In this document: positions 9,012 to 22,640 of the stretch, piece after piece
How positions within the stretch are numbered: position 1 is the first letter of the stretch
How the letters are laid out: the number at the start of each line of letters is the position of its first letter
From: an uncultured Verrucomicrobiae bacterium
Lineage (GTDB): Bacteria > Verrucomicrobiota > Verrucomicrobiia > Chthoniobacterales > UBA10450
NCBI GenBank assembly: GCA_963772365.1
Contig: CAVYXA010000004.1
Coordinates: 96,001-160,000 of the forward strand
Direction: 5' to 3'
DNA length: 64,000 bases
Translations under genes and position numbers: made by a program
The notes under the pieces: model-generated
What the model was told of the DNA's origin: nothing
Databases searched by the model: none
The model's input: the letters and a program-made list of their open reading frames with translations, nothing else

Positions 9012-9323
9012 TTACGCGTCGATGTGAATAACCTTCTCATCGGCGAGCCGTTTCAGAAAAGGGAGTTCGGAAGAGGCGGCCCAGATGTCCAGCGGGCCAT
9101 CGTGAAAACCGAACAGCTCGTTTCCGCCCTTCTTGAGGCGAAAATCCTGCGTCGCTTTAATCTTGGCGTTTGTGCACCAGGTATCGGTGAGATGCGGAAA
9201 GTCTGCAGAAAGATAATTCCGACCGTCGATTGTTGCGACGGAGTCACCGCCCGTATCCTTGAACAACCGACGAAAAAATTCCGAATAGCGGGTCGTTCTA
9301 ACTGTGAGTAATCGGTTCTTCAT
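9012..9323 (-). CDS. Putative immunity protein for the Rhs toxin (103 aa)
   Basis: ATG overlaps the Rhs stop (TAATG); small ORF directly downstream of the toxin domain; no family recognised. Confidence 0.7.
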   Translation of the reverse strand: MKNRLLTVRTTRYSEFFRRLFKDTGGDSVATIDGRNYLSADFPHLTDTWCTNAKIKATQDFRLKKGGNELFGFHDGPLDIWAASSELPFLKRLADEKVIHIDA

Positions 9324-12300
9324 TAACCCCCGCCACCCCGCCATGTACCGATAACGGCGCGCAAGTTTCTCAAAAAATTGCCGCTCTGTTGGGGCAAATG
9401 GTGGGTTCCGAGACCGTTTCCCCAATCCAAATGGAAGTGCGTTCCCTCTTGCCATTCTCCGGCATTTTTCCAGCGGCCGTATTCAAATCCTCGGAATCTC
9501 GCAAGCTTTAACCCTGCGGCGGTGACCAGAGCCTCCTGCGATACCGTCCCCAAATACTTGCTGATAGCGGTATCTTTGGCACACGGGTCGTAACGATCTG
9601 AAAACGGATCGGCGAACGGAATCAAACCATCTAAACCGGCATAGGCACCTTGTTCAAAATCTGCGGCCCGGTAGTTATCCCATCCCCCGTTGAATCCTTC
9701 GTAATCGCCCACGCCCCACGTCGCTGGATTAGTCAGATACCAAAGACCGAGAGGATCTGTCAGGTTGACGGGATCGTTCCCGACGTAGCCGTACAGATTC
9801 ACGCCTCCATCCTCCCCGATTGGATCGCGGCTTAGCCATCTTGCAGCCACAGCATCGTACTCACGCGTGAGGCTGAAATTCAGACTGCTTCCACTGTGAA
9901 GATAAAATCCTGTAAAGCCGAAATCGGCGTCCTGACCGCCGCTTACCTTGGTTCGGTTACCGTAGGGATCGTAATCGTAACGCGCCTTGATTGCCCCGGT
10001 GCTATTTGTCATCTCCCGGATACTGCCGAGGTGATCACGCAGGTAATAGAAAAGCGTGTTGCCGCTGACAGTCTGCACCCCCTGGGCGTAATAGCGCTTA
10101 ACCACCGCATTGCTATTGTTGCGCTGCTCAGCGACTGTTACCCCCTCCCACACGAATTTCTTTGTGCTGTTGACCGTGTTCCCTGTCTTCTCCACGATCT
10201 TGACACGTCGGCTTAAGCCATCGTAGGTAAATTCGCTTCGATTCGTGGTCCCGGTGTAATTGATTGCCACCAGTCGACTGGCTGCGTCCCATTCGTAGGT
10301 CTTCGTTGCGTCATCAGTCAGATTGCCGTTTAGATCATACGAGAACGTCCGGTTCGAGCCGGAAGAAGCCGTGACCTGATAGTTGTTCGTCTTGACATTC
10401 CCATTCGTATCGGTCGCAACTACGGAGACCGTGTTGTTCCCCGGAACGACATCCACCACTCCGTCGAAATTTCCTGCCCCGTCCACCGTGGCCGCGTTTC
10501 CGCCTACTGTCACGGTCGAGGGTTCATTCACCGTCCCTCTAAAATGCAGCTTGCCTCCTCCGTTCTGGCTCGTCAGTTGATTGAGCTCGTTATAGTTCGA
10601 GGTCGTGATTGTGCTCCGCTCCTGGTTGGTATAGCGGTTGCCAGCCGCGTCGTAATCGTAGTCGTACTGCTTGAGCACTGCCCCGCTTTGCACTTTCTTT
10701 TGCAGCGCACTGCTCAATTGATCAGCCGAATCATATCTGAGAGTGTACGTGCTCGCCGTATTGGCAGCTCCCTGTCTTACCGTCCAACTCGTGATATCGC
10801 CCGCTGCATTGTAGAGATAATCGAACTGCGAAATAATGGCTGCGGAAGGGTTAAGGTTCTTGATCTGTTTCAGGCGCTGATCGCCCAGATTGTCGAAGTA
10901 AGCATACTGAATCTTCTGGCCACCAGGGATATCCTCATGATCAAGTCGGCTGGTCGTGTTCACGTAACTGTAATTAAATGTGCCCAAGACATTGGTCACG
11001 CTCTGCACACGGCCCAATGAGTCATACACCATCGAAGCAGCATTCGCCGCACCATTGATCGAGCGGCCAATCGCCCGGCCCAGCTCATCATACGAGTAGG
11101 TAATGGTGTCGTTGTTGAGCGAGCCATCAACGCTCGCCAGGCGAGCCGAACCGAGCGCGGGCGGCACTGGTACCGGATTGTAACCGTAGCTCGTCAAGCC
11201 GGTACCGTCGTTCATGCTCGCCACCCGGTTGTAAACCGGATCGCAGGTGTACGTGACGCTTGGCGTGGCGATCTGCGCGTTCGTGTAACTGATCTGTTGG
11301 AGGTTGTTGTCGAGGAAATAGCCGTAATTGGTCGTTTGCCCTTTGGCATCAGTCATCGATTTGAGCCGGCTGGTTGTGTCCTCGTATGTGTAATGGGTCG
11401 AGTTTTGGTCGGCATAAATCTTTTCCGTGACTCTGCCCTGAACGTCCCGCACCCAATTGGTCGTGTTGTGGTTTGGATCGGTGATGCCATCCAGGCTGCC
11501 GCAGTTGCACCAATTGTACACCGTGATCCGGTAAAGCGGATCTTGCATCACGATCAGGCGGCGAAGGGCATCATGCCAGTTGTGGCTCCAGCGCCCCAGC
11601 CGGTCCCGGGTCCATTCCGGATCAAGGCGGTCGTAGGTGGTTTCCTCGTAAGTGCCGTCGGGATAGGTGACCTTCGCGATCCGGTCCATTGTCTTCGTGG
11701 GGTCACCGCCAATCGCGTCGTAGTCAATCGTGACCGCGTATCCTTCCGAATCGGTTGCCGTGCGCAGCCGGCCAAAACCGTCGTAAGCAAATGAAGTAAT
11801 CGCACCCGCCACAGGCCCCGTGATGCTCTGGAGATAGCCACTGTTGTCGTAGGCGTAGGTCGTGACTTCGTTTTTTGCGTTTGTAATCGTGTGAATCTGG
11901 CCGTTTGCATAGTAGTCGTAAATCGTGGTCTGGCCCGAAGCGTCCGTCGCGGTGAGGGGCTCGTGTTGTGCGTTGTAGGTATAAGCAGCGACCTTGTCGG
12001 CCGCTTGCCCTTCTGGATCAAGACTGGCTCCGGCCGGGTTCCGTTGATACACGGTGAGCAGGTCGATTCCGTTGGCGTCGTAAGCGTAGCTGGTAACCCG
12101 ACCCAGCGGGTCGGTCACCTTGGTTGTTTTGCCGAAGCCATTGTATTCGTATTGATAAAGCTGGGTAGTGCCGTCATCCATGACACGCGCAACCTTGGAA
12201 GGTTTAAAGATCGTAACGTTCCCCGTCCCGGCGGGCCAGGTCTGCCCGGGATAATTGTTCCAGACCCGATCCTCGAACGGCATTTTGCTGCTTTCGGGGA

Positions 12301-14551
12301 CATCGGAAGCGACATTGATGTCTTCAGTGTGGAGCCAGTGGGTGATGCGCGCCTTGGTGTAGACTCCAGGCGCTTCCGCCATCGCTTTCTTGTCCCAATA
12401 GAAGGTGTCCCGATAATTAATGTATTGGTTGAAGGTGGCGATCTCGGGCGGAACCGTATTGCCTGATTCCGAGAACGGAATGGCTGAGACATTGTTATTA
12501 TATTCGACCCGTTCTTTGGCGCCCTGAGGATCGGTGACTTCAAGCCAGCGATAGCTCGAGCCGGATTCGCCCATGGCGAAGAGCGTATCACCGTATGGCG
12601 TCGTCATTTTGTTGATGAAATCGCCCGTATCGTAGGTGAATTCCGAAACGAGACCAATCGAGTCGGTAATCTTCCACAGTTGCCCGGCTTCGTTGTACTC
12701 CAGTGTGGCGACCCGGCCAAATGGATCGGTCACCTTGGTTACTTTTAGTGGGTCTCCGGTCAGCTCGTAGCTTAGAGTCGTCACCTGACCGATCGCGTCC
12801 GTGATTGCAACCAGGCGAAAGGTCCCATCGTAAGAATAGGCGAGCGCGTTCCCGTGAGGGTCGATTGACTGAGTCATAAACAGCTTGCGCGCCACCGGGG
12901 CGCCATCTGAGACCGCGAAAATCTGCCGAGAACCGTCAGGGAACCGCTTCTCGTATTGATCGGTTCCCAGCTTGACCAGGCTAACCTGGGTCTCGCGTTG
13001 CGGCGCATAGCTTTGAGTGCCGGAGTTAAATCCATTGTAGTGCAGCGTTCCGCCTCCCGGTCCGTAAGCAGTGGCGTCTGCGGCTTCATTGGCCGGATCG
13101 ATGACGATGTAGCTGATCCAATTGAAGCTCCACTTGTTCCCCAGATTGGAATAGGTTGGGGTTTGTACAGGCGCGACCTCGCGCTGCTGATAGGAAACGG
13201 CAAATTTTACTGCGGGTCCGACCGGCGGCGCATAGCTGACCGGTGTGTCGGTGATCGTGAGACTGACCCGGGCGGAGTCGACGTTGTAGTCTGCCATGCC
13301 ATCCGAGCCGCCACATTCTGGCTTAGGACATTTGACCGACGGAGCCACACACGGCGGAGGCGGCTCCGAATTACTGCCAGCGTTGCCCTTCCCCCAGACG
13401 TTCTTTCCTTCCGCTTCGCTGACCGGCTGCCAACCACTGGGCAGATCGCCCGCCGGTACAAGAAAGTAGCCCGACTGCTCCTCGTCGATCGTCTGCTGCG
13501 TGAGGAGCGTGTCGTCGCCAAACGTCGGATCCTGGGCGCGGAACCTTCCATCCTTTTCCTCGATTAAGGCGGCGTAATGGCCTACCCGCCAATTGATCAC
13601 CGAAGGAACGATTATCCTTGCTCCAAGTGAACGCTTTGCCATCTGATATCTCAAACCGAGTTTATCAGCCAGCTTTTTGACCTGAACCAATGACATCCCC
13701 CTATTAGTCGAGGCAGAGGCGAGAATCTCCTTTTGCCGATCGGGGCCGCCCAAATGCGAGGCGGCAAGAATCTGTTTCAACGCCATCGGACCACACCGAA
13801 AAGCGTCTTGCGGACGTGTCCTCATTAACGCTAACCCTTGTCGCGCCGTGGCGACTTTTTCCGTCGCCGCGCCTCGAACGTCGCGGTGATCAATCTCGCC
13901 AAACAGAGCCTCAAGGCGATCTGCTCGGCCCAGCCTGGCATTGAGCTGAGCGAGCTCACCCAAAACATAGTCAGCCAGCGCTCGCTGGCGTGGCTGGGTT
14001 GCCTTTGCGACCAGGGGCCACGCCTCTTCCCAAGCGTCCAGTGCTTTGGACCAGTGACCAGTCGCGCGCCAAATCGCTCCCAAATTGGCGAGCAATGCTG
14101 CTCGCCAAGGGGAAGCAGGGAACTGATTGAGGAAACTAGTAAATCCATCGGCCGCTTCAGGATTGTTCCGGGCAGCGAAATCTTTGATGATCGTTGCCAA
14201 CGCGAAATTTTCCGACGGTGAGGTCCTGCCGCCAACCGGGATCAATGGTTCCCGAAATACGCGTGCCGCTTCAAGCTCACCATCGGTGGGGCTGCTGGAA
14301 AAGTGCATTGCCGATCGCTGACTCATAGGCGGCAGCGTACGATTAGGCCTTGCTCCGCTCGTCGAAGCAAAAAACGTGGCTGCTTGTGCTCGTGGCTTCG
14401 GGGCCGACGAAGTTGTTGTCTCAGTGGTAGCCGCGATCAAAATCTGGACAGGCCAAACAGAGACCGCTTGTGATACTGCCACAAGGTATGAGGTGGCGCG
14501 AAGTCGCCAGTTCAATTGTGACATTCTCTTGGCTGACACCGCGCTTTTCAT
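9323..14551 (-). CDS. RHS/YD-repeat polymorphic toxin with N-terminal helical (TPR-like) and C39 peptidase domains, internal Ig-like insert and C-terminal toxin domain
   Basis: YD repeats; core end RWLSRDPIGEDGGVNLYGYVGNDPVNLTDPLGL; C39 motifs CGPMAL, WRVGHY, QDPTFG. Confidence 0.93.
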   Translation of the reverse strand: MKSAVSAKRMSQLNWRLRATSYLVAVSQAVSVWPVQILIAATTETTTSSAPKPRAQAATFFASTSGARPNRTLPPMSQRSAMHFSSSPTDGELEAARVFREPLIPVGGRTSPSENFALATIIKDFAARNNPEAADGFTSFLNQFPASPWRAALLANLGAIWRATGHWSKALDAWEEAWPLVAKATQPRQRALADYVLGELAQLNARLGRADRLEALFGEIDHRDVRGAATEKVATARQGLALMRTRPQDAFRCGPMALKQILAASHLGGPDRQKEILASASTNRGMSLVQVKKLADKLGLRYQMAKRSLGARIIVPSVINWRVGHYAALIEEKDGRFRAQDPTFGDDTLLTQQTIDEEQSGYFLVPAGDLPSGWQPVSEAEGKNVWGKGNAGSNSEPPPPCVAPSVKCPKPECGGSDGMADYNVDSARVSLTITDTPVSYAPPVGPAVKFAVSYQQREVAPVQTPTYSNLGNKWSFNWISYIVIDPANEAADATAYGPGGGTLHYNGFNSGTQSYAPQRETQVSLVKLGTDQYEKRFPDGSRQIFAVSDGAPVARKLFMTQSIDPHGNALAYSYDGTFRLVAITDAIGQVTTLSYELTGDPLKVTKVTDPFGRVATLEYNEAGQLWKITDSIGLVSEFTYDTGDFINKMTTPYGDTLFAMGESGSSYRWLEVTDPQGAKERVEYNNNVSAIPFSESGNTVPPEIATFNQYINYRDTFYWDKKAMAEAPGVYTKARITHWLHTEDINVASDVPESSKMPFEDRVWNNYPGQTWPAGTGNVTIFKPSKVARVMDDGTTQLYQYEYNGFGKTTKVTDPLGRVTSYAYDANGIDLLTVYQRNPAGASLDPEGQAADKVAAYTYNAQHEPLTATDASGQTTIYDYYANGQIHTITNAKNEVTTYAYDNSGYLQSITGPVAGAITSFAYDGFGRLRTATDSEGYAVTIDYDAIGGDPTKTMDRIAKVTYPDGTYEETTYDRLDPEWTRDRLGRWSHNWHDALRRLIVMQDPLYRITVYNWCNCGSLDGITDPNHNTTNWVRDVQGRVTEKIYADQNSTHYTYEDTTSRLKSMTDAKGQTTNYGYFLDNNLQQISYTNAQIATPSVTYTCDPVYNRVASMNDGTGLTSYGYNPVPVPPALGSARLASVDGSLNNDTITYSYDELGRAIGRSINGAANAASMVYDSLGRVQSVTNVLGTFNYSYVNTTSRLDHEDIPGGQKIQYAYFDNLGDQRLKQIKNLNPSAAIISQFDYLYNAAGDITSWTVRQGAANTASTYTLRYDSADQLSSALQKKVQSGAVLKQYDYDYDAAGNRYTNQERSTITTSNYNELNQLTSQNGGGKLHFRGTVNEPSTVTVGGNAATVDGAGNFDGVVDVVPGNNTVSVVATDTNGNVKTNNYQVTASSGSNRTFSYDLNGNLTDDATKTYEWDAASRLVAINYTGTTNRSEFTYDGLSRRVKIVEKTGNTVNSTKKFVWEGVTVAEQRNNSNAVVKRYYAQGVQTVSGNTLFYYLRDHLGSIREMTNSTGAIKARYDYDPYGNRTKVSGGQDADFGFTGFYLHSGSSLNFSLTREYDAVAARWLSRDPIGEDGGVNLYGYVGNDPVNLTDPLGLWYLTNPATWGVGDYEGFNGGWDNYRAADFEQGAYAGLDGLIPFADPFSDRYDPCAKDTAISKYLGTVSQEALVTAAGLKLARFRGFEYGRWKNAGEWQEGTHFHLDWGNGLGTHHLPQQSGNFLRNLRAVIGTWRGGGG

Positions 14552-14554
14552 TCC

Positions 14555-16555
14555 TTAAGGTGAGAGAACCGCGTCAGCGGGTTCAGTTAGCACAATCGTG
14601 GGAGGGGTATGGTCGTTTGGATCGCCCGAGGGAAGCTGCGAACGCGTAGGATCGAGCGGGTAAGCGTCTTGTCCGTCGGGTACGCCATCGCCATCGGAAT
14701 CTGCAGCGAAGGGATTGGTGCCGATCGAGTACCCATAGGTATTCGTGAGACCATCACCGTCGACATCGTTGCTGAGCGGGTCAAAGCCCGCATAATACTC
14801 AGCGCCGTCTGGAACAAGATCTCCGTTCGTGTCCCAATTATAGGGGTCAGTGCCGATTGCTTGTTCTTGTCCGTTCGGAAGACCATCGTCGTCCTGGTCC
14901 AACGCCGGAAAAAGGTATTTCGAATCGAGCGCCCGTATAGCCCCGGCTCTCTCCGCAAAGTTCAAAACATGGTCGTAGACGATCACTTCGGCTATATCGC
15001 CGGCGAAGTTGTCAATGTAAGCTCGACCCAGGAGAGGATCAGAACGAAACGCCACTGTGTTAGTTGTTTCCCGATGTTCCTCTAATCCATCAAAGCGCGC
15101 CACCCATTCGTTCTCCTTCGCACTCACGTTGTAAATGTGATATTCGTCCCAGCTGTGGGGCGGATTGCCTAAGTTGTATTGCACCGTGCTGCCGAAGTCG
15201 TCATAGATGTTCCCGTCAAACCAACAAGGATAACACGCTCCGTAGGTACTGCCGCCAAACGACATCATGCGGTAGTGGCCGCCATCCTTCGCCCCTCGCA
15301 CCACCAGGAAGATCTCCCCCTCCGTTCCCCCGTTCATCAGATTCGGCAGACTTAGCCATTGGTTTCCTCCAAAATGCACAACCGGACGACCATTCAGCTC
15401 GTTCTCCACCAAGGCTGGCTGGTTTGCCCCTGTGTTCTGCACAGCGTGGTTCTCCAAGCCGGATTGATCCACCCAGTAGTCAATTGGATTGGTCGTCGCA
15501 TCGGCCTTTAACCACAAACGCATGTTATTCAATGGCATTCCAACACCGAACGGAGGAAGCGACGCAGTTGCTTCATTCGAGGGTAGCGATAGGCCCGCAA
15601 AATTACTGGCACTGACGCGATACGTATAAGTTTCACCCGCTTGCAGCGCAGCATCGATGTAGCTACGCCCTGGCACCCTTGCAATTTCGGTGAAAGCTCC
15701 AGCGCCTACTTTGCGCTCCACGATGAACTCAGTCGCATCGTTCACTGTAGGGTAATCCCAAATTACGCTCGTTTCATCAGCAGAGATGGCGTGAGCGCCA
15801 AGATTCGTCGGCGTCGTTGGATCTGCCACCAATGCATATTTGCTTCCCAGATATGTGTCCGTCGTTCGGCGCTCCGCAGAGCTCAAGACGCGGTCGTAGA
15901 CGATCACTTCGGCTATATCTCCGGCGAAGTTGTCAACGTAAGCTCGGCCCAGGAGAGGATCAGAACGAAATGCCACGGTGTTCGTTGCTTCTCTGTGTTC
16001 CTCCAATCCATCAAAGCGTGCCACCCATTCGTTCGCTTTCGCACTTACATTGTAGATGTGGTACTCGGGCCAGCTCTGGGGCGGATTGCCTAAATTGTAT
16101 TGCGCCGTGCTACCGAAGTCGTCATAGATGTTCCCGTCGAACCAACAAGGATAACATGCTCCGTAGGTACTAGTGCCAAAGTGCATCATGCGGTAGTGAC
16201 CGCCATCCTGCGCCCCTCGCACCACCATGAAAATCTCGCCTTCGCTTGCCGTGTTCATGAAGTTCGGCAACGTAAAATATTCGCCGCCGCTGAAATGGAC
16301 GATTGGCAATCCGTTTAGACCATTCTGAGTGAAAAATGGTTGCTGACCGCTGTTCGGTTGCGTCGCGTCTGAGGAGTTTCCAGATTGGTCCTGCCAAATG
16401 CTGATCCTTCCATTTGAATCATAAACAACGCCGAAGTCGGCCCGTAGCCAGAGTCTGAGTCCTTCAGTGACTGGCAAAGTTTGAGAGCCAGCCGTCGCCC
16501 TGAGTATCATTGCGAAGCTTAGAACCCGTATGATTCTTCGGCATTCAGTGCGCAC
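14555..16555 (-). CDS. Secreted protein: LamG/concanavalin-like domain, FN3, second LamG-like domain, DxDxDG Ca-binding repeats (start uncertain)
   Basis: LWLRAD..WQDQSGN and FAGDIAEVIVYDRVL occur twice; YTYRVSASNFAGLS (FN3); DQDDDG/DTNGD/DVDGDG/DSDGDG. Confidence 0.85.
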   Translation of the reverse strand: MRTECRRIIRVLSFAMILRATAGSQTLPVTEGLRLWLRADFGVVYDSNGRISIWQDQSGNSSDATQPNSGQQPFFTQNGLNGLPIVHFSGGEYFTLPNFMNTASEGEIFMVVRGAQDGGHYRMMHFGTSTYGACYPCWFDGNIYDDFGSTAQYNLGNPPQSWPEYHIYNVSAKANEWVARFDGLEEHREATNTVAFRSDPLLGRAYVDNFAGDIAEVIVYDRVLSSAERRTTDTYLGSKYALVADPTTPTNLGAHAISADETSVIWDYPTVNDATEFIVERKVGAGAFTEIARVPGRSYIDAALQAGETYTYRVSASNFAGLSLPSNEATASLPPFGVGMPLNNMRLWLKADATTNPIDYWVDQSGLENHAVQNTGANQPALVENELNGRPVVHFGGNQWLSLPNLMNGGTEGEIFLVVRGAKDGGHYRMMSFGGSTYGACYPCWFDGNIYDDFGSTVQYNLGNPPHSWDEYHIYNVSAKENEWVARFDGLEEHRETTNTVAFRSDPLLGRAYIDNFAGDIAEVIVYDHVLNFAERAGAIRALDSKYLFPALDQDDDGLPNGQEQAIGTDPYNWDTNGDLVPDGAEYYAGFDPLSNDVDGDGLTNTYGYSIGTNPFAADSDGDGVPDGQDAYPLDPTRSQLPSGDPNDHTPPTIVLTEPADAVLSP
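14971..16269. repeat. Intragenic direct repeat, about 380 bp (14971-15348 and 15892-16269), encoding the duplicated LamG-like domain
   Basis: The copies align at a constant 921-bp offset with high identity, e.g. ggtcgtagacgatcacttcggctatatc in both. Confidence 0.9.
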
Positions 16556-16839
16556 AATGTGCGATGAATAGAAAATGAAGTTTTGATAGGCAAGACTTTT
16601 TTGTGTCACAAATTTTGAACCAGCGCGATCGGCCAATGCGAACGCTGCCCGCACGGCTCCGAACAGTTGCCCCGTGCAAACAGGGGTAAAGATCCAACTC
16701 TTTTCCGCCAACGCGAACGCGGTGAGACCGTGCCGGGAGTGTCCGCCTGCGCGCCCACGAGAGGTCGCGGGCTGTTATTCCACCTGATGATGTCGCTGCT
16801 ACGCGGCCAGAGCGGTCCGTAAATTGCCCGCTCAGCTTG

Positions 16840-20708: not shown

Positions 20709-22322
20709 TCAGGCTTCGCCGGAATGGATGATTTGCTTCAATTGCTGAACTACCTGTTTCCGAGCATCGCTATCATCAGCGCAGCCCCACACCGCAATCT
20801 CGAGCATTTGCGCGCCCACTTCGCGCCTTCCATGCAATGCCGCTCGAATACGTCCCCAGGCTGTCCAGTCTTCTTGCTCAGCTGCGGCCACATTTCTGTA
20901 GGACGACCGCGCGTCCCAGTAACAATAGAAGACGTGTAGTGGCACACCATGATCGTCGAACAAATAGGAGCGCAGCGGCAAGTCAGCGCCATTGATGTTG
21001 GCTAACCAGAATCCGCTGTCGCGTATCATGGTGAGGCCACTGGCAGGAAGGCATTTTTCCGGTCGATGGATTTTTACAAAGAGAGCAGCCGTGCGACCCG
21101 GCAGCCAATGAAAGAAGTACATCAGCCAATGGTGGCCATCCGGCGAGGTCCAACCCGCGCCTCCGCCATCGTCGTAGCGAAGCATCCTTGCCGCCTCGGG
21201 TGAGATTGGAACCGACTTGAAGTCCGCCTCGGATTTTGGCCAGGAAACAGCCCAGCGCGAATGGGGCGGTACGCGATGCAACCCGTACCAAAATTGAGCG
21301 CCGATCTCAGACAAAACCAACCAGAGAGTCAGCGCGGCGAGCAAGGGCAACTGCCGGCGGAAACGTTGCGTAATTTGAAAGATGTCGTTTGAGGAGTCGA
21401 GCCGCCGCGCCATTATTTTGCGATTCTCATGCCGGCGCATGAACAGACTCAGAAACCAAAGACCAAAAAGGCAAATCAGCAGAATGGTTAAACCAGCCGG
21501 ATCATGCCAGTTTTCTAAAGCATCGGTCCCGCGGTTCGCTCCGATCCACACCAGAATTGCTGTGCGCACAACATTGCTGATGAATGCGAGGATCCCGCCG
21601 GCCAACAGCAGAAACAGGCGGCGATACATCGTAAATGAGTAGAGTTCGCCCAGAAACAGCGAGATCATCAGTGTGGCTTGGAGTGACCGGACACCGCTGC
21701 AGGCTTCTTCAATTCCAATGAGGCCCGAGGTAACTTCAATCACGTTTCCATGTTGGAGTGCGGGAATGCCGGCGGCATTCAGGCCGGCAACATTGATCGC
21801 AGTCACCGCCCGCATTAGGCCTTGAATTACGAATTGCTCAAACCGAACAGGCCACGGAACAGCCACCAGAACAAAGCAAAAAGGGAAAGCAAAATGCCGC
21901 AGCCACGGCGCGCCGCCGATCAAATAAATTAAGCAAAGAGAAATCGTAAGCGCGATAAAAGCGAGTCCCCAACTGAGCAAGCGCCAATCTGGATTTGCTT
22001 CCGACAGAAATCGAATCGGAAGAAGAAGAAAGCTGAAAACAACAGTGGTAGCGATGGGAAAAGCTCGAGATTTCGGTGCGCTCCGCGATGATGGACGTTC
22101 CGGCCAGCGTTGCCAAAGAAGAAGAAAAATCGCGAGAAATGGAACCGCCCAACCGTAGCTGTACTGAGGGTTAAACGTCCACTCATTGCTCAAATGCTTG
22201 AAAACCTCAGCCCAGAGGAAAACCAAAAAGCCCAGGAACAATGAAGTCGGCCAGAGCGCGGGCGTAGTAGATGTCGATCGGAAAGAAATTGTGCGCGCCA
22301 TTACGGTTTTCATCGCCGGCAT
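20709..22322 (-). CDS. Exosortase family protein with C-terminal extracytoplasmic (EpsI-like) domain (start uncertain)
   Basis: EEACSGVRSL (Cys), SNVVR (Arg), WHD (His); C-terminal HRPEKCLPASG. Confidence 0.9.
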   Translation of the reverse strand: MPAMKTVMARTISFRSTSTTPALWPTSLFLGFLVFLWAEVFKHLSNEWTFNPQYSYGWAVPFLAIFLLLWQRWPERPSSRSAPKSRAFPIATTVVFSFLLLPIRFLSEANPDWRLLSWGLAFIALTISLCLIYLIGGAPWLRHFAFPFCFVLVAVPWPVRFEQFVIQGLMRAVTAINVAGLNAAGIPALQHGNVIEVTSGLIGIEEACSGVRSLQATLMISLFLGELYSFTMYRRLFLLLAGGILAFISNVVRTAILVWIGANRGTDALENWHDPAGLTILLICLFGLWFLSLFMRRHENRKIMARRLDSSNDIFQITQRFRRQLPLLAALTLWLVLSEIGAQFWYGLHRVPPHSRWAVSWPKSEADFKSVPISPEAARMLRYDDGGGAGWTSPDGHHWLMYFFHWLPGRTAALFVKIHRPEKCLPASGLTMIRDSGFWLANINGADLPLRSYLFDDHGVPLHVFYCYWDARSSYRNVAAAEQEDWTAWGRIRAALHGRREVGAQMLEIAVWGCADDSDARKQVVQQLKQIIHSGEA

Positions 22323-22640
22323 AGCGTAGCGAAGTCCGAGCAGGTTGCGAGCCGCTTTGCTCCGCCGTTCATGTGTCCGACTGACTGTGGGTAGGATTGT
22401 TCGCCGAAATTCAATTCGCGGAAATATCCACTCGCCGCGCAAACTGGTCGAAGAGGATTCTATTGTTCTCGATGGTGTGATCGCCGGAGTATTTTTTTTG
22501 ACGGAATTTTCCTTGACCTCAGCGAGCGGGGCTGTCTAAAAGAGAACTCGAAACTACCGTTTTCGTGGGATGCGATTGTTATTGACGAGCGCAGCGCGAA
22601 TATGATAATTATGGAAATCATCAGATAAACATCGAATCTT

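Follow-up and report, generated by a model that had tools for sequence, protein, structure and literature searches.

The window analyzed here, 64,000 nt of DNA from an uncultured Verrucomicrobiae bacterium (contig CAVYXA010000004.1, positions 96,001 to 160,000), comes from a genome assembly of 3.35 Mb that is 90.3% complete. On its minus strand lies a trio of genes: a large modular gene (the partner), an Rhs gene and a short open reading frame (ORF) (Table 1). The stop codon of the partner stands 3 nt ahead of the Rhs ATG. The flanking genes that were scanned with Pfam were housekeeping genes, and the nearest titled homologue records of the Rhs protein belonged to Spartobacteria and Chthoniobacterales metagenome-assembled genomes. 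The Rhs shell is interrupted by an immunoglobulin (Ig)-like insert that has no first strand, and the partner ends in a lone strand. The analysis suggests that this tail completes the Ig fold of the insert in trans and thereby tethers the partner to the shell.

Table 1. Features of the partner–Rhs locus (window coordinates).
Feature	Position	Strand	Basis
Partner: LamG-like, Fn3, LamG-like, TSP3 repeats, donor tail	14555..16711	-	Pfam Laminin_G_3, fn3, TSP3_bac, each below its own cut-off
TSP3-type acidic repeats and proline-rich linker ahead of the tail	14620..14899	-	sequence, Pfam
C-terminal tail D700-P718, predicted to be the first strand (A, probably plus A') that the Ig domain lacks	14558..14614	-	complete-repeat profile positions 11-26
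Rhs/YD-repeat protein, 1742 amino acids (aa)	9323..14551	-	Pfam, TIGRFAM, structure matches
Rhs N-terminus: TPR-like and C39-like peptidase, Cys253/His325/Asp341 in place	13352..14320	-	PF03412, E 4.7e-5
YD shell and Rhs-associated core, ending in DPxG motifs	9740..13297	-	TIGR03696, 72.4 bits (cut-off 32.5)
Ig-like insert K1334-T1394 without first strand, predicted acceptor	10370..10552	-	PF09136, insertion alignment, model, tiling
Variable C-terminal domain, 138 aa, candidate toxin	9326..9739	-	no Pfam match
103-aa ORF, start overlapping the Rhs stop (TAATG), candidate immunity gene	9012..9323	-	no Pfam match

The insert is 61 residues long and sits at a hairpin (glycine) turn of the shell. 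PF09136 (Glucodextran_B) matched it at 34.2 bits (cut-off 27), at profile positions 22-81 of 83 only. Positions 1-21 were unmatched, indicating that no first strand is present in the same chain. Between two anchor motifs, 98 residues were counted in the window Rhs versus 33 in insert-less homologues of 44-50% identity, and the Ig segment is therefore a clean insertion. The original prediction, made from the sequence, had placed an Ig-like segment without its first strand at 10371-10560; both points were borne out, with the boundaries moved to 10370-10552. When the insert was modeled alone with AlphaFold2, five main strands were obtained at a predicted local distance difference test (pLDDT) score of 86, which is no measure of the stability of the insert without a first strand or of its need for one. 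The ten residues before strand B were unstructured and no first strand was present in the model, as had been anticipated. The best structural match was glucodextranase 1UG9 from residue 706 (Z 8.5, root-mean-square deviation (rmsd) 5.1, 73 residues aligned). With the insert profile as query, the PDB sequences gave nothing below E 0.17, Foldseek alone gave no match at E 0.001, and none of the 10 pattern matches in viral contigs was a relative.

The partner, for its part, ends in DHTPPTIVLTEPADAVLSP, with the stop codon directly after the tail, so that the lone C-terminal strand followed by no further domain was present as claimed. The type-1 tail pattern, to which this tail belongs, stood at the end of 3 of the 3258 six-frame ORFs of at least 200 aa in the same genome, one of them the partner gene. 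Across 15 tails the end fell 6-9 residues past the last proline, and 7 residues past it in 11 of the 15, where the pattern had allowed 5-10.

Complete repeats of the same Ig type were used to locate the two pieces. Searched with the insert profile, a set of 1.84 billion representatives yielded proteins that carry complete repeats in tandem, 536 domains in 133 of the 150 listed proteins. The motif P-x-h-x-h-x-x-P stood just upstream in cis in 410 of the 536 repeats, and 359 of these had it 9 residues before strand B. It preceded strand B in none of the 15 insert-bearing Rhs rows, and 13 of them, the window Rhs included, had no in-cis donor motif anywhere; the matches in the remaining two fell in the N-terminal TPR region. 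On a profile built from 250 complete repeats, the window tail aligned to positions 11-26 and the window insert to positions 32-94, with no overlap. All 15 tails ended at profile positions 24-28 and all 32 inserts began at positions 26-33. By these alignments, the shell carries strands B to G of a Glucodextran_B-type Ig domain, and the partner ends in the opening strand of the complete repeats.

The linkage of insert and tail was examined in loci from 201 family genomes, metagenomes (the best 80 of 128 matches) and 401 phylum genomes. Full-length Rhs genes with upstream DNA were counted. Not counted were truncated or orphan Rhs modules, the non-Rhs Ig proteins L168 and L171, and the full-length rows L170, L041, L043, L049, L056, L064, L065 and L118, which the filter had dropped. 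A tail was found upstream in all 15 insert-bearing rows (14 distinct, L081 repeating L034). The dropped row L170 also has insert and tail by eye, giving 15 of 15 distinct genes with an intact 5′ end. The tail was found in 0 of 27 rows (26 distinct) without a window-type insert, and none was seen by eye in the dropped rows L041, L043, L049, L056, L064 and L065. Type-1 partners measured 691 to 2479 aa where complete and carried a varied mix of RCC1, LamG, Fn3 and TSP3 modules; those of L090 and L091 keep the tail although no TSP3 repeats precede it. Shell identity to the window across the insert group ranged from 29 to 82%. A profile of the last 70 partner residues gave a full-length match in 4 of the 201 family genomes, always directly upstream of an insert-bearing Rhs; 3 of these 4 genomes had, besides the window, contributed to its own alignment. 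Two phylum matches were non-Rhs proteins with complete domains. The TPR/C39 N-terminal domain was considered as a correlate of the partner and rejected, because L064 and L072 have this domain without insert or tail.

A second insert/tail type was found. In the metagenomic loci L118 and L119, the insert is longer and the upstream gene ends in L-x-V-Y-[TS]-P. The type-2 insert occurred in 33 of the 401 phylum genomes, in shells about 22-28% identical to the window shell. Its first half shows relatedness to type 1 (hhalign probability 81%). The model of the type-2 insert reached pLDDT 92 and has the strand order of type 1, and its alignment to 1UG9 starts at residue 706 as that of type 1 does, at a middling Z of 6.7 (rmsd 3.2, 72 aligned). 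The strict tail L-x-V-[FY]-T-P, shorter than that of type 1, was present in the adjoining gene of 17 of 30 full-length cases. In the other 13, judged by eye, the end was strand-like but looser in 9, the tail lay one gene further upstream in 3, and one (L192) showed no tail. No type-1 tail was found in the 30 type-2 cases, and the type-2 pattern was absent from the 15 type-1 tails. One prospective case was G176, in which a type-2 tail was located via its TSP3 repeats and an Rhs with a type-2 insert was then found at 97.7 bits. The type-2 tail profile gave no clean converse test in 5 genomes, because TSP3 repeats swamped its matches (best 150 of 174). In a second prospective case, L235/L236 of genome G396, an insert-like stretch was seen by eye that scored below 5 bits with all three profiles.

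A blind set of 40 further Rhs loci, chosen by ORF length among the 150 matches listed, was then scored with fixed patterns. All 6 loci with a type-1 insert had a type-1 tail. Together with the 15 of 15 in the discovery set, this agrees with the co-occurrence that had been proposed as a check. Among 6 loci with a type-2 insert, 3 had a type-2 tail, one had the type-1 pattern (type 2 by eye) and 2 had no tail within 2.5 kb, both with a tail-like end one gene further up by eye. In 28 loci no insert was scored; the tail was missing from 23 of these and present in 5, all of which show a divergent insert by eye. A large TSP3-rich gene upstream of an insert-less Rhs ended in a tail in 0 of 6 cases. 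In L177, L191, L196, L201, L241, L251 and L259, one unrelated gene stands between the tail-bearing gene and the Rhs. The TSP3-rich genes before the insert-less Rhs of L263, L265, L268, L269, L272 and L273 share a C-terminal domain ending near S-x-C-H, which is possibly a third way to couple partner and shell. In locus L240 (G298:C5), a TSP3-rich partner-like region and an Rhs shell are naturally fused into one protein of 5743 aa, in which the shell retains an insert-like stretch and a tail motif is absent.

Complex prediction from the alignments of insert (32 rows) and tail (15 rows) gave a score of 0.49, compared with 0.02 for the best control, a weakly supportive result given with no contacts. 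The runs agreed in at least 94% of contacts, with a partner pLDDT of at least 57. The mark applied is passed by 116 of 157 solved complexes and by 2 of 215 mismatches. The claim that the tail completes the Ig fold in trans was supported as far as tiling and co-occurrence go, and its docking part was favored weakly, with no interface. As for the claim that the partner is exchangeable, it stands on the evolutionary scale and not within the genome itself, which holds one insert, in the Rhs, and one tail gene.

We consider it probable, at about 0.78, that a variable surface protein is tethered, by strand complementation in trans, to an Rhs toxin shell that is probably exported through Sec. Two adjoining genes would yield two proteins, each exported on its own, with a single Ig domain divided between them. 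Both would probably pass through Sec, as suggested by hydrophobic N-termini seen by eye, by the secretins present and by the finding of no PAAR or VgrG. After export, the partner tail would bind the open edge of the insert and complete the beta-sandwich, and the completed joint would hold the partner on the exterior of the shell, where the insert is predicted to lie. With one half on each protein, a heterodimer is predicted. The lectin-like LamG, Fn3, RCC1 and TSP3 modules, which vary among relatives, would form an adhesion or display arm, and the partner might stand in for the PAAR/VgrG delivery tip of an encapsulated antibacterial toxin. The strand-complementation interpretation of the original prediction is supported; the roles of the partner as adhesin and of the Rhs C-terminal domain as toxin are inferred.

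Several results weigh against this proposal. Single tail-to-profile matches were weak (2.4-11.9 bits), and the type-2 tail pattern was drawn up after the sequences had been seen. The complex score of 0.49 lies in the weak band, scores of at most 0.60 being reached by just 18 of the 157 solved complexes and by both passing mismatches, and the halves of a split domain may pass by their likeness to solved complete Ig folds. The insert modeled alone was already confident (pLDDT 86). Orphan Rhs modules L032 and L073 retain the insert without an adjoining partner. Five of the 23 tail-less blind loci (L240, L248, L259, L260 and L274) show an insert-like stretch without a clear tail, L259 and L260 having only a partial tail two genes up; inserts without a recognizable tail include L192, L248, L274 and the fusion L240. 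The insert-less controls are also non-independent. A quick tree built from 45 shells placed 29 of the 30 insert-less rows in one clade, and the insert label needs 2 changes, with 1 also possible, which amounts to 1-2 events. Because the insert-less rows are nearly one clade, the comparison draws its weight from the tail having been retained in shells of 29-82% identity and not from the negatives.

The tail might instead be a C-terminal sorting or export signal for a third protein, with a self-sufficient insert and a linkage due to operon inheritance. The confident fold of the insert alone, a negative set of only 1-2 events and the genomic secretins, which could serve such an export route, fit this explanation. 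A sorting signal should, on the other hand, end many exported proteins, whereas each genome in which the full tail was found had it a single time, always ahead of an insert-bearing Rhs gene (4/201), and TSP3-rich genes before insert-less Rhs lack it. Nor does a sorting signal give a reason for the tail to tile the Ig profile, and tail type tracks insert type. We regard the sorting signal as unlikely. Completion of the insert in cis, by another Rhs strand or by a second Rhs copy, with the tail as a vestige of an Ig domain lost from the partner, would account for inserts without a nearby tail gene. However, 13 of the 15 proteins lack an in-cis motif near or far, and a vestige would hardly keep its pattern and length across shells 29-82% identical to that of the window, making this explanation very improbable. 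We give equally little credence to complementation that is real but serves folding or co-secretion, as a transient chaperone-like escort in place of a lasting adhesin–toxin complex: inspection by eye showed no membrane anchor on partner or Rhs, as an escort would allow, but the partners are large LamG/RCC1/Fn3 arrays (691 to over 3000 aa), unlike a small chaperone, and some insert-less Rhs proteins carry another domain of about 150 aa within the shell itself. An origin by simple gene fission or frameshift was rejected on account of the approximately 1330 Rhs codons between tail and insert. Stop read-through, suggested by the window pair being in frame, was rejected because only 6 of the 15 type-1 pairs share a frame, roughly the number expected by chance.

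The class of the shell protein was examined with profiles and structures. The YD repeat array was matched by PF05593 at 151.6 bits and TIGR01643 at 110 bits, the Rhs-associated core is present, and cleavage is predicted from the DPxG motifs at aa 1574-1604. Homologue alignments end at about aa 1600-1660 and the C-termini beyond differ, indicating a hypervariable C-terminus. By array, core and variable C-terminus, the protein is assigned to the YD-repeat polymorphic toxin family, with a putative toxic function. Its nearest solved relatives were Rhs shells (best 7Q97, E 6.9e-31); in the comparison with teneurin-like proteins, 9IFO was matched by the core only, and a Pfam scan showed no TIP, FN-plug or NHL superfold domain. 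The RHS element core protein profile NF041261 scored 76 bits against a cut-off of 2000. Neither PAAR nor VgrG was found in the Rhs protein or the flanking genes scanned with Pfam, and in the 90.3% complete genome PAAR had no match and Phage_GPD none over its cut-off. The protein was not assigned to the Rhs effectors delivered by type VI secretion (T6SS). Its C39-like domain aligned to the double-glycine protease 6MPZ, and the TPR/C39 N-terminus also occurs in the insert-less Rhs of L064 and L072. The C-terminal domain gave a weak Atlas lead to MafB-type clusters (0.90, 118/256 features shared). For the partner, the TTG start given by the ORF caller is probably too far upstream and the GTG at 16555 is preferred; the N-terminus from this GTG is signal-peptide-like by eye, with a homologue N-terminus compared.

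Some further observations were made. Beta-rich domains of about 150 aa lie later in insert-less shells (L059:1855-2379, L066:11675-12169 and L069:2262-2726), with no Pfam match over cut-off. The window genome encodes a second, different Rhs-like protein (G000:C1:777028-782610, a 1860-aa frame with cysteine-rich interruptions), which has no partner gene and no Ig insert of the window type. At G000:C1:1080295-1084881, three short ORFs, all lacking a YD shell, read as a signal peptide followed by just the last part of the Rhs core motif and a variable C-terminal domain; in one of them, the first part of the window Rhs C-terminal domain recurs. An exosortase (EpsH) gene with a DUF3485-like domain, at 20709-22442 of the window (minus strand), adjoins a family-2 glycosyltransferase gene.

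The proposal bears on the question of how Rhs toxins that lack a type VI tip get to a target or remain there. The answer proposed here is small and testable, a 19-residue peptide and a 61-residue domain in a large soil and water phylum, and it gives a function to two C-terminal motifs that recur on giant surface proteins with no other relationship to one another. The pair would be a natural tag and socket with two apparent specificities. On balance, we favor a widespread, T6SS-free two-gene Rhs system in Verrucomicrobia and at least one distant metagenomic lineage, in which a strand-less Ig socket would receive a freely re-assorted surface protein that plugs in by its last 10-20 residues, with at least two socket-specific tail codes, D-x-x-P-P-x-I-x-L-x-x-P and L-x-V-[FY]-T-P.

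Folds completed across chains by a donated strand are already known from pili and a phage baseplate; the Rhs case is new as far as the literature search reached. The Ig fold of chaperone-usher pilus subunits (FimA, PapA) is incomplete, and the strand that fills the gap comes from another chain. There the last strand (G) is missing, the donor is N-terminal, a chaperone and an usher are needed, and the subunits polymerize. The window pair has the opposite polarity, with the first strand missing and a C-terminal tail as donor, and whereas chaperone-usher subunits hold both donor and acceptor, the window Rhs has one insert and no donor motif. Bacteroidia build type V pili (FimA, Mfa1) in which a C-terminal strand replaces an N-terminal strand of the next chain; proteolysis of a lipoprotein precursor opens the groove, and the products are filaments. 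In the window pair, the strand is missing from the gene itself, and fold and context differ.

The literature searched, with subscription journals and supplements outside its scope, held no Rhs insert completed by a partner tail, and the passages available from a polymorphic-toxin survey (PMC3482391) contained nothing of an insert/tail pairing. As far as the available parts of these reports go, three systems come close. In Photorhabdus Rhs1, an Ig-like domain forms an N-terminal plug (PMC8636562). T6SS Rhs effectors such as Rhs1 share the YD shell, the aspartyl-protease-type core and the variable C-terminal domain with the window Rhs; they load through PAAR/VgrG/EagR, whereas no PAAR or VgrG was found for the window Rhs, which has a TPR and C39-like N-terminus and its Ig part late in the shell. 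Bacterial teneurin-like proteins are YD-shell toxins that are exported through Sec and have immunity genes and variable adhesion modules (bioRxiv 10.1101/2025.11.11.687626). Their modules are fused at the N-terminus, whereas in the window the module is a separate gene product that would be joined by a strand. In the BppU-BppA crystal structure of Lactococcus phage Tuc2009, a C-terminal extension of about 25 residues on one protein completes a beta-sheet of a titin-like domain in the other and tethers a carbohydrate-binding module (PMC4742702). This resembles the arrangement proposed here, in that the C-terminal extension of one protein completes a sheet in another. In Tuc2009, however, a hairpin on a phage baseplate protein acts as donor and the adhesin's C-terminal domain as acceptor, whereas in the window pair the predicted donor is on the adhesin-like protein and the predicted acceptor lies in the middle of the YD shell.

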